Shown piece by piece: positions 9,005 through 43,437 of a stretch of DNA of 64,000 bases (positions within the stretch are counted from its first letter, which is position 1; each line of letters starts with the position of its first letter). The translations under genes and the position numbers were made by a program. Under the pieces are notes generated by a model that was given only the letters and a program-made list of their open reading frames with translations, made no database searches and was not told where the DNA came from. The DNA is from Octopus vulgaris (Eukaryota), in the NCBI GenBank assembly GCA_951406725.2, contig OX597815.1, positions 4,030,001-4,094,000 on the forward strand, in the 5' to 3' direction.

Positions 9005-9360
9005 AATTACTGCACATTTAAGCACAAAGAGTAGACCCCTTAAACAGGCCGCCTAACATACTAGAAAGAACAGTCAAAAAGTCCAAACCACAGTTAAGAG
9101 CAATTTCGAAGGGAATCAAAAATAAAAACATTTACCATGTTTTACAGGCGGACCTCAGGTTTCGAACTTTAATTCGCAATCAAAATAATTTGCAAGGCGA
9201 AGGTCCCATCTTTCTAGAATGTTAGGCAAACTGCTTAATGCCTTGCCTCTCTCTGTTTAGATGTAAGCTAATTTTTATATGAAAAAGATGTCTATTGACT
9301 TTGTATACATACTAGGCCACTGGTAGGGAAAGAAATTTATAATTTTTCCTACCCTATATT
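9005..9360. mobile_element. Fold-back pair of HHR/structured-domain element (family R)
   Basis: Minus arm has HHR 3' half GAAA-CCTGAGG-TC (~9136-9160), GTAAATG and TTCTTTCTAG; plus arm ends CATACTAG-GCCAC-hairpin-CCTATATT as at 42912-42968. Confidence 0.65.
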
Positions 9361-9401
9361 AATTTATATATATATATATATATATATATATATATATATA
9401 T

Positions 9402-10013
9402 AGGCGCAGGAGTGGCTGTGTGGTAAGTAGCTTGTTTACCGACCACATAGTTCCAGTTTCAGTCCCACTGTGTTTGTGTGTCTGTGTTTGTCCCCCTAGC
9501 ATTGCTTGACAACCGGTGTTACTTAGCGGTTCCGTTACTTAGCGGTTCGGCAAAAGAGACCGATAGAATAAGTACTGGGCTTACAAAAGAGTAAGTCCCA
9601 GGGTCGAGTTGCTCGATTAAAGGCGGTGCTCCAGCATGGCCGCAGTCAAATGACTGAAACAAGTAAAAGAGTAAAAGAGTATATATGTGTGTGTGTGTGT
9701 GTATATATATATATATATATATATATATATATGTTTGTGTGTCTGTGTTTGTACCCCCAAGATCGCTTGACAACCGATGCTGGTGTGTTTACGTCCCCGT
9801 AACTTAGCGATTCGGTGAAACAGACCGATAGAATAAGTACTATGCTTACAAAGAATAAGTCCTGGTGTCGATCTTATCGTATATACTCTTTTACTCTTTT
9901 TCTTGTTTCAGTCATTTAACTGTGGCCATGCTGGAGCCCCGCCTTTGGTCGATAAGATCGACACCAGGACTTATTCTTTGTAAGCATAGTACTTATTCTA
10001 TCGGTCTGTTTCA
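9402..10013. mobile_element. Cluster of SINE family 2 pieces including an inverted duplication
   Basis: Head at 9402, tails at ~9520-9680 (+), 9733-9879 (+), 9885-10013 (-). Confidence 0.8.
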
Positions 10014-10084
10014 CTATATATATATAGTTAGTTACTATATATATTTGTTTGCAAGTAGGTAACCCTTTGCAAGTAGGTAACCCT

Positions 10085-10300
10085 CTTTTTTAAATTTTCC
10101 GGGTTCATAGGATCGTGCTCAAGGTGACTTCGTCATTCATACGTGCCATCCTTGCTACATTCACCCATCTTTTTTTTAAAACATTCGCTAGACAAAACTT
10201 GCCTCTCTACTCTCACTTTCCTTTTTCAAGTGATACTTGAAGAAGTTGATGAGAGATTGACCAGAGAGGAAAGTGTTTGTCTCTAATCCTTTCAGGCGCG
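10085..10300 (-). mobile_element. Short 5'-truncated L1/Tx1 LINE fragment
   Basis: RLKGLETNTFLSGQSLINFFKYHLKK parallels the C-terminus encoded at 10687-10880. Confidence 0.8.
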
Positions 10301-10390
10301 TAGATAGATAGATAGATAGATAGATAGATAGATAGATAGATAGATAGATAGATAGATAGATAGATAGATAGATAGATAGATAGATAGATA

Positions 10391-40989: not shown

Positions 40990-41640
40990 CACATACATAC
41001 ACACATACATACATGCATACATACATACATACATACATACATACATACATACATACATACATACATACATACATACATACATACATACATACATACATAC
41101 ATACATACATACATACATACATACATACATACATACACACATACATACATACATACATACATACATACATACATACATACATACATACATACATATATAC
41201 ATACATACATACATACATACATACATACATACATACATACATACATACATACATATATACATACATACATACATACATACATACATACATACATACATAC
41301 ATACATACATACATACATACATACATACATACATACATACATACATACATACATGCATACATACATGCATGCATACATACATACATACATGCATACATAC
41401 ATGCATGCATACATTACACATGCATACATACATACATACATACATTCATACATACATACATACATACATACATACATACATACATACACACACACACACA
41501 TAATACATACATACATACATACATACATACATACATACATACATACATACATACATACATACATGCATACATACATACAAATATACATACATACATACAT
41601 ACATACAGTCATACATACATACATACATGCATACATAAAT
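40990..41640. repeat. (CATA)n microsatellite, ~650 bp
   Basis: Direct reading. Confidence 0.95.
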
Positions 41641-42112
41641 ACGCACACACATCCGATGATGTATAAATATATAGACGTGCTGCACGAAGCTTTTGCTGCG
41701 GTCAATATCGAATACTTAAGCTGATCGTTACATTAAATTATGGGATGTCCTCTGGGGCACGTAGACAAACTGATGGCGAGATGTGGGAATGGTGGAATGG
41801 TTGTTTATAGAGATGCAGGGATACTGTGGGGTTTGATGGCGTAACTGGGCTGTGGGATGGATGAAGTTATACGGATGAAGACGGATATATATATGTGTGT
41901 GTGTGTGTGTGTGTGTGTGTGTGTGTGTGTGTGTGTGTGTGTGTGTGTGTATGTATTTATACATACATATATATATATATATATATATATCACAATCAAG
42001 GAACGGCCATAATAGGCCATTCACCCACTAGAAATAACAGCCAAAAGCTTTAACCGCAAAATAACGTCAATTCCGTAAACCAGGAGAAAATTAAAAAACA
42101 TTTACCCTGTAA

Positions 42113-42217
42113 TTTCTTAGACGATGCACCGTTTCATCTACCGTTTAATGGAAAACTAACCTGATTAAATTAAATCAAGCCAATCTACCATAGGCCCTTA
42201 GATTCATCAGTAAGAAA
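42113..42217 (-). ncRNA. Intact type I HHR
   Basis: tttctta-CTGATGA-atcta..tagat-GAAA-CGGTGCATCG-TC-taagaaa. Confidence 0.9.
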
Positions 42218-42646
42218 TAGCCAAGCCGGAACAGATATTTTTCACGAGGCATTCTCGTTGCTACCTCGTCAATATCTGACCTAAAATTTTCAAATCGTCG
42301 CACTCGCGCCAAATTTATCGGCAGCAAATAAATATAAGCCGCCGATTCCATTACGGAATTAACCAGAAAATTCATAATTAATCAATATAGGGTGGCAAAA
42401 AAAATTTTGTAGAATTCTGTTGCCACCATGCGGCCTAGTGGGAAAAAAATTAAATAGTCATAAACCATTTTTAAGTTCAACATCACAATCAAGGAACGGC
42501 CATAATAGGCCATTCACCCACTAGAAATAACAGCCAAAAGCTTTAACCGCAAAATAACGTCAATTCCGATTTGAAAATTTTAGGTCAGATATTGACGAGG
42601 TAGCAACGAGAATGCCTCGTGAAAAATATCTGTTCCGGCTTGGCTA

Positions 42647-42751
42647 TTTCTTACTGATGAATCTAAGGGCCTATGGTAGATTGGCTTGATTTAATTTAAT
42701 CAGGTTAGTTTTCCATTAAACGGTAGATGAAACGGTGCATCGTCTAAGAAA
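42647..42751 (+). ncRNA. Intact type I HHR (inverted twin); predicted cut after 42744
   Basis: 7-bp stem I, CTGATGA 42654-42660, GAAA 42729-42732, GTC 42742-42744. Confidence 0.9.
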
Positions 42752-43437
42752 TTACAGGGTAAATGTTTTTTAATTTTCTCCTGGTTTACGGAATTGACGT
42801 TATTTTGCGGTTAAAGCTTTTGGCTGTTATTTCTAGTGGGTGAATGGCCTATTATGGCCGTTCCTTGATTGTGATGTTGAATAAAAATGGTTTATGACTA
42901 TTTAATTTTTTCCCACTAGGCCGCTGGTGGCAAAAGAATTATACAAAATTTTTTTTTGTACCCTATATTATATATATATATATATATATATATATATATA
43001 TATATATATATATATATATATATATATATATATATATATATATATATATATATACACATATATATATATATACACATATATATACATATATATATACATA
43101 TATATACACATATATATCATATATATATATATATACATATATGTATGTATGTATATATATATATATATATATATATATATATATATATATATACGTTGAA
43201 AGATAGATAGATAGATACATACATACATACATACATACATGGATGAATAGATAGATAGATAGATAGATAGATAGATAGACAGATAGATAGATAGATAGAT
43301 AGATAGATAGATAGATAGATAGATAGATAGATAGATAGATAGATAGATAGATAGATAGATAGATAGAGGGACAAATGTATATATACATATATTCACACAC
43401 ACACAGACACACACATATACATACATATAGATACAGA

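Follow-up and report, generated by a model that had tools for sequence, protein, structure and literature searches.

Animal non-LTR retrozymes are a known class of element, and they have been proposed to be non-autonomous derivatives of Penelope-like elements (PLEs) (10.64898/2026.07.22.740005). Those published consist of tandem non-coding monomers with a type I hammerhead and a palindromic loop III (Cervera and de la Pena, 2020, PMC7229834; Li, Clavereau, Pollet, 2026), all of which recur in the family described here. The relevant excerpts of these reports present MFE folds and phylogeny, without a covarying domain, fixed ends, inverted arms or an intron, and the sampling given there includes no cephalopod-type genome. 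The present family shows PLE-type insertion anatomy directly.

A PLE protein nicks both target strands and begins reverse transcription (RT) internally, at two sites that lie behind the hammerhead; these starts bound the tail, and RNA downstream of them is required (Frangieh 2024, PMC11167929). In PLEs the tail is often present at one end only (Craig 2021, PMC8557442). As far as the excerpts of PMC8557442, PMC3846280 and PMC11167929 go, the PLE pLTR/PAc resembles the present family in its hammerhead, two internal starts, one-end tail, tandem/inverted structure and AT-rich target. It has one AC-rich stem-loop, whereas the tail of the present family is structured and 90–106 nt long, the sites lie in a fold of six to seven helices, there is no ORF, and the occurrence of one end of each kind per insertion could be counted (59/63).

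Penelope of D. virilis contains a 75-bp pLTR intron (PMC2377424), and like the intron predicted here it is a short terminal-repeat intron by the hammerhead that is kept in all genomic copies, according to the parts of PMC2377424 and PMC4209133 that deal with it. Unlike that of D. virilis, the predicted intron of the present family closely follows the cut site (in subfamilies F1 and F3 its start is in stem II instead), is kept in a non-coding element and has a 3′ end that is part of the predicted RT-docking fold. Intron retention in PLEs has been ascribed to a translation benefit (Schostak 2008, PMC2377424) or to an antisense or unspliced template (Arkhipova 2013, PMC3846280). Since the present element is non-coding, a translation benefit cannot account for retention of its predicted intron. 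Within the open-licence PMC and bioRxiv literature we found no covarying start-site fold, no structured 90–106-nt tail, no counted one-of-each rule and no retrozyme intron or splice site. The repeats themselves may stand in Repbase or Dfam, which lie outside that scope.

Five loci of a retrozyme family in the window

The window is a 64,000-nt stretch of contig OX597815.1 of Octopus vulgaris, whose 2.8-Gb genome is rich in (TA)n. An initial annotation had reported five loci with one RNA domain in common. Its motifs are all present, including the strands of helices A and B, the hairpins, the hammerhead cores and an ATG at 42375 (minus strand), and the loci are real, but their nature as a tandem non-coding retrozyme had been missed. 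All five are non-LTR retrozymes with PLE anatomy. The non-coding monomer of 400–490 nt carries a type I hammerhead and inserts in (TA)n as tandem arrays with an inverted arm. As in other non-LTR retrozymes, the tandem units are a few hundred bp long, each has its type I hammerhead and no protein is encoded (no conserved ORF was found in the monomers).

The locus at 41991..42968 is a single insertion in (TA)n of a 491-nt monomer (family A), with two arms joined at a 2-nt microhomology. The inverted arm (41991–42568, minus) holds monomer positions 45–491 followed by 1–131 and ends at site 1, and the direct arm (42567–42968, plus) holds 314–491 followed by 1–227 and ends near site 2, these being the two places where insertions usually end (see below). 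Elsewhere in the genome the 491-nt monomer forms head-to-tail arrays of 98% identity, usually with an inverted arm and with up to 9 copies among the matches listed. The type I hammerhead of the direct arm (42647..42751, plus) has a 7-bp stem I, a CUGAUGA core at 42654, a long stem II, GAAA, and a stem III with a palindromic UGCA loop; cleavage is predicted after 42744. A second hammerhead in the inverted arm (42113..42217, minus) has its core at 42210 and a predicted cut after 42120. Both self-cleavage sites are predictions from the motif.

The other four loci represent subfamilies B–E (monomers of 455, 480, 468 and 399 nt), which are 46–76% identical; E is the most diverged (46–50% identity to A–D). 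The subfamily B insertion (9005..9362) has a minus arm (9005–9210) that ends at site 1 and holds the predicted hammerhead 3′ half, donor and acceptor, and a plus arm (9209–9362) that ends at site 2. In the subfamily E insertion (12895..13135) the minus arm ends near site 1 and the plus arm contains helices A and B and the terminal hairpin. The helix strands reported at 9005 and 12890 are real, but they had been joined from two arms. Only the 5′ half of the fold is present at the remaining two loci, a single arm of subfamily D (24228..24385, minus) that ends at site 1, and a subfamily C insertion (25650..25893) with both arms ending at site 1. Full-length genomic copies of these four subfamilies carry both strands on one arm, and the strands pair.

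The hammerhead cores of B, C, D and E are CUGAUGA, UUGAAAA, UUGACGA and CUGAUGA, respectively; those of C and D are U3 core variants, and a U3-A8 variant is known from PLEs (PMC4209133, in the part describing hammerhead cores). All monomers examined in that region carry a type I hammerhead whose loop III is palindromic. Genome-wide, a pattern anchored in the fold gave 3,661 matches (2 with the reversed control) and a second pattern gave 1,082 (again 2 with the control). The 101 distinct cores were grouped into 14 clusters of at least two members, with 7 singletons kept apart, two of which are the E copies used in the alignment.

The window also contains broken LINE-type RT frames of 282 and 194 aa (10700–12700, minus), and ends of other PLE-like families adjoin (TA)n at 43940–44110, 13160–13330, 20039–20126 and 48124–48300; one of these families has a minimal hammerhead-like motif.

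A predicted multi-helix fold kept by compensatory changes

In the direct arm of family A the core fold spans 42807..42924 (plus) with predicted helices P1, P1a, P2, P3, P4 and P5, and site 1 at about 42873. Helix B (P1) is predicted to pair 42807–42811 with 42920–42924, and helix A (P2) to pair 42833–42840 with 42912–42919, closing P3, P4 and P5. P3, the inner hairpin, is predicted at 42842–42863. The terminal hairpin P6 and the AT-rich site 2 follow at 42926..42968. P6 has decayed in this arm, and the intact terminal-hairpin sequence TTGCCACC occurs in the inverted arm only. That arm contains a complete second copy of the fold, P1–P6 (42376..42550, minus), followed by the ATG at 42375, which coincides with site 2.

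The initial annotation had the core fold right but missed a long-range helix, P0, with its 5′ strand at 42786..42798 (plus). It is predicted to pair with monomer positions 248–260 behind site 2 (in the inverted arm, about 42351–42363). P0 has pair probabilities of 0.7–1.0 in family A, P0-like helices of other sequence are found at the same place in B, C and D, and in A–D the helix closes the fold from the region before helix B to behind site 2. The whole monomer is predicted to be structured. Hairpins of differing sequence are kept at monomer positions 260–400 of families A–D (42567–42645 and 42215–42350 in the window), with the common word GATTTGAAAA, so conservation of structure reaches beyond the domain first reported.

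MFE folding gave helices A and B in 14 of 15 subfamily consensuses, with subfamily I deviating. Helix B comes first, then a small hairpin and helix A, which encloses two to four hairpins; the terminal hairpin follows in those consensuses that include it. Fold z-scores of the consensuses range from −2.1 to −7.7 (40 shuffles each). Four helix-A pairs on which the search pattern placed no constraint are paired in 57 of 60 cells over the 15 consensuses; permutations gave a mean of 42.8, and none of 20,000 was as high as 57. Among 30 real copies, 87% of the cells pair, compared with 30–48% in slid controls, and 59 cells show a double change against 24.5 ± 4.5 after shuffling (0/500 as high). Counted per pair, those with a double change (12 against 10.5; 124/500) and the further pair types (34 against 33.4; 232/500) were not above the shuffles in the same 30 copies. 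A tree-aware test found 12 shared steps over 5 pairs, where the null gave a mean of 2.1 and a maximum of 7 in 2,000 simulations. The proposed covariation of helix A is thus borne out, and across 15 subfamilies a predicted multi-helix fold is kept by compensatory changes.

The inner and terminal hairpins fared less uniformly. They recur in single-sequence folds, but RNAalifold on a sequence-only alignment recovered helix A alone. As their lengths vary between subfamilies, the column test is only partial for them, and P1a and P3 were left out of it because they could not be aligned. G-U combinations outnumber A-C (71 against 20 cells) on the ribozyme strand, the strand bias that the initial annotation had noted, which points to RNA of the same strand as the hammerhead, although in 4 of 15 consensuses the opposite strand has the lower folding energy. 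The fold had not been recognised as a known one, and Rfam 15 likewise gave no match in the window at the gathering threshold. In six loci searched at E ≤ 1 there were sub-threshold matches only, nearly all of them miRNA models on microsatellites.

Insertions end at two fixed places, one of each

Helix A closes the loop that holds site 1, which in A is at +131 counted from the hammerhead cut; site 2 follows the terminal hairpin at a distance of about 15 nt (+235 to +237). The distance between them, which we call the tail, is 90–106 nt in A–D (about 106 nt in A). We classed 263 ends adjoining (TA)n, from 229 loci: site 1 accounts for 128 of them, site 2 for 120 and other positions for 15, with 38 Neptune-type loci excluded from the count; the windows that define the classes are wide but the modes are sharp, with 13/25 and 14/23 of the family A ends at a single base. 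Loose ends in independent sequencing runs fall at the same two places.

We found 70 two-armed insertions, 63 with both ends classed and 7 with one end unclassed. One end of each kind was present in 59 of the 63, while three (including the subfamily C insertion at 25650..25893) have site 1 twice and one has site 2 twice. The one-of-each rule holds in both orientations and in six subfamily groups (A, B, C, D, F, G). A direct arm with an inverted 5′-truncated arm and a tail at one end is what PLE insertions look like, as is the bias for (TA)n targets known for Neptune, Hydra and Naiad. The tail departs from the 30–40 bp of PLEs.

The arms are joined at scattered points, mostly through 0–5 nt of microhomology. 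Within a family A insertion they differ at 0.5% of positions (28/5118), compared with 2.6% between insertions, and have 44 of 59 non-consensus bases in common. The site-1 arm extends further upstream than its site-2 partner in 17 of 44 insertions, and so was not copied from it. Together with the shared private variants, this indicates that both arms are primed on RNA of one source. A stop of the site-2 arms at site 1 was looked for in the 44 insertions and not found; 3/44 stop within the tail, and these arms usually run past site 1.

A DNA transposon or MITE with TIRs, a possibility raised in the initial annotation, was considered and rejected: the two ends of an insertion differ and so are not TIRs, and the arms vary from 66 to 2,900 nt. 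A Helitron-like reading of CTAG was also rejected, the motif being internal and not terminal.

A predicted intron across the fold

Two sequence motifs are the best kept in the family: G|GTAAA stands 15 nt past the cut, and YTTCTAG|YR 73–93 nt further on. In family A they delimit a predicted 78-nt intron (42759..42836, plus) with the donor AGG|GTAAAT, a branch-like TTGAC and the acceptor TTTCTAG|. The linker that the initial annotation described as conserved is indeed kept in sequence, but its resemblance to a 3′ splice site had been missed; it reads as the putative 3′ splice site of a 73–93-nt intron. YTRAY-like words are found about 30–40 nt before the AG in A–D. In 11 of 14 clusters the AG is preceded by a G|GTRAR at a distance of 73–86 nt, and in E at 93 nt (background 20/404). 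The motifs are common by descent, so the 12 subfamilies do not count as 12 independent cases.

In subfamilies F1 and F3 (loci L198, L208, L249) a donor-like GTAAGT is found in the loop of hammerhead stem II instead of at the usual donor place, so that splicing and self-cleavage would exclude each other. One contig of sequencing run X1 exits the element exactly at the family A donor; what follows is a genomic exon that has TTCTTTGCAG in front of it. This host exon of about 125 nt (L268, G000:C28:12995684, minus) occurs once in the genome, where a pyrimidine tract and CAG directly precede it and GTAAGT marks its end. This single transcript contig suggests that the donor may work, at least into a host exon, and an exonisation of the family A repeat at this place is possible.

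The acceptor AG lies inside helix A and is paired with P ≥ 0.98 in 5/5 consensuses according to prediction, and splicing in silico takes away P0, helix B and P1a together with half of helix A. No spliced junction was found among family A genomic copies (0 against 2,656 unspliced), with the C/D pattern in the genome (0) or in the fetched loci (0 against 170 unspliced). Four runs of contigs, of which three are presumed RNA, had no intron-skipping joint among the joints listed; their reference is a tandem stretch and uninformative on the acceptor.

Neptune-type elements as candidate helpers

Intact elements of the Neptune type, with RT and GIY-YIG domains and a Cys linker, are abundant in the genome, with (TA)n as their target and a distance of 38 nt between their two ends. 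One such pLTR end adjoins (TA)n within the window, on the minus strand near 44000 (43940–44110). Three intact two-ORF elements are L171 (G000:C5:1040000-1048000), L175 (C6:133343000-133351000) and L176 (C6:112993500-113001500). ORF1 (466 aa), for which we found no convincing Pfam match, overlaps ORF2 (765 aa; RT, Cys linker, GIY-YIG), and a long repeat-rich 3′ region is present. Their U3-A8 hammerhead is flanked by a donor-like AAG|GTAAAA on one side and a conserved TAG|YRG on the other and, judging from these motifs, may belong to an intron of 344 nt. The TAG|YRG is predicted to pair with the ORF1 start codon region, and this pairing covaries between two families, including L090.

Like the present family, L171, L175, L176 and L090 have a (TA)n target, two ends, a palindromic loop III and a conserved TAG|YR with a downstream helix partner (TAGTGG/CCACTA in L090, as in helix A of family A). 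They differ in a compact pLTR end with a 38-nt tail and both sites inside the helix that pairs with the ORF1 start, and there is no alignable sequence similarity. The pLTR of the active Neptune-type element is smaller and folds differently; with the family it has only the TAG|YR helix in common. The initial annotation had proposed a search for the domain upstream of a full PLE ORF. In the window and 139 loci, a scan for motifs turned up no PLE ORF next to the element. A search for GIY-YIG domains returned Neptune-type families, and blastn found no similarity to the pLTRs beside 30 of 150 GIY-YIG matches listed; no autonomous element with the fold was found. Neptune-type elements are the likeliest candidate for the helper.

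Possible roles of the fold

The fold is probably a cis signal for docking and RT start of a PLE RT-endonuclease supplied in trans. Both fixed ends lie in or just behind it and match the two internal RT starts that flank the PLE tail, which makes RT docking and initiation the best reading and favours the role in RT recognition suggested at the outset. For a structure predicted from the letters, a docking and start platform is the likely interpretation. It builds on the monomer and its arrays, the (TA)n target, both fixed ends and the one-of-each rule, as well as on the variants that the arms share and the covariation. The GIY-YIG endonuclease would cut both strands of (TA)n, after which one 3′-OH would prime at site 1 in the multibranch loop and the other at site 2 behind the terminal hairpin, on one transcript or on transcripts of one locus. 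The two cDNAs would stop at scattered points and join head to head through 0–5-nt microhomology, with long arms arising from multimeric or circular RNA. Against this stand the lack of an autonomous element with the fold among the loci scanned, the tail of 90–106 nt compared with 30–40 bp in published PLEs, and the in vitro work on PLEs, which in its relevant part reports no strand preference for the two sites (Frangieh 2024, PMC11167929).

The chances seem evenly balanced that the 5′ strands of P0, helix B and P1a and half of helix A would belong to a PLE-type pLTR intron, so that only unspliced RNA would fold and be copied, with helix A masking the acceptor. A position of the fold astride the predicted acceptor would explain why PLE-type elements keep introns. 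A lack of spliced copies would also be expected if the acceptor were never used, and use of the donor is seen in one contig. More tentatively, and with some doubt on our side, one folded unspliced RNA might offer both start sites to the halves of a PLE RT-endonuclease dimer and so prime both target strands, while the fold across the intron's 3′ terminus conceals the acceptor and sorts unspliced RNA for copying. As site-2 arms usually run past site 1, a single RNA molecule would need strand displacement.

It is unlikely that the fold instead serves stability or circularisation of a hammerhead-cut circle, the ends being set only by pairing of AT-rich sequence with (TA)n primers. Both ends do match (TA)n by 2–3 nt, the whole monomer is structured, metazoan retrozymes yield abundant, well-paired circRNAs (PMC7229834, in the section concerned), and of the 5′ ends of 98 arms, 13 fall no more than 8 nt from the hammerhead cut (3–11 in neighbouring 17-nt bins), a weak enrichment that hints at copying of cut RNA. 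Yet many other AT-rich stretches of the monomer are unused, the ends hold their place relative to the helices in subfamilies that are 46–76% identical, and pairing of sequence alone predicts half mixed insertions, not 59/63.

Rather less probable still is a single cDNA whose inverted arm arises by fold-back, with the second site reflecting endonuclease resolution and the fold acting on ssDNA. Fold-back self-priming, possibly on an antisense template, was proposed by Arkhipova (2013, PMC3846280), and the relevant passages of PMC3846280 and PMC8557442 ascribe the tail to endonuclease resolution. This account predicts both the one-of-each ends and the identical arms that we see. It conflicts with the 17 of 44 site-1 arms that hold sequence absent from the site-2 arm, with the tail, which cannot be copied from the site-1 arm, and with the G-U excess on the ribozyme strand, which also carries the hammerhead and the donor.

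We give hardly any credence to the cap-independent translation element, also suggested in the initial annotation, for an ORF starting at the ATG behind the fold: this ATG is found 40–54 nt behind helix B in A, A2, B, C and D and may be a relic of a parent start codon (the Neptune-type ORF1 starts about 27 nt behind site 2), but the fold is conserved while the frames are 3–75 aa long, unrelated between subfamilies, without Pfam match, unstable within family A (66, 57 and 26 aa) and absent at that place in E.

Significance for retrozymes and Penelope-like elements

The docking and start reading, if true in its fuller form with one unspliced RNA, would give a cause for both intron retention and the one-sided tail of PLEs, kept and elaborated by a non-coding parasite lineage without a surviving sequence parent. 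Besides a structure supported by covariation, the family has two start sites that are mapped and natural insertion products in their thousands, and it offers a small RNA substrate testable with compensatory mutants. At the level of insertions it provides direct evidence for PLE-type double priming as the way in which an animal retrozyme is mobilised, and it offers a testable account of why PLEs retain their introns.
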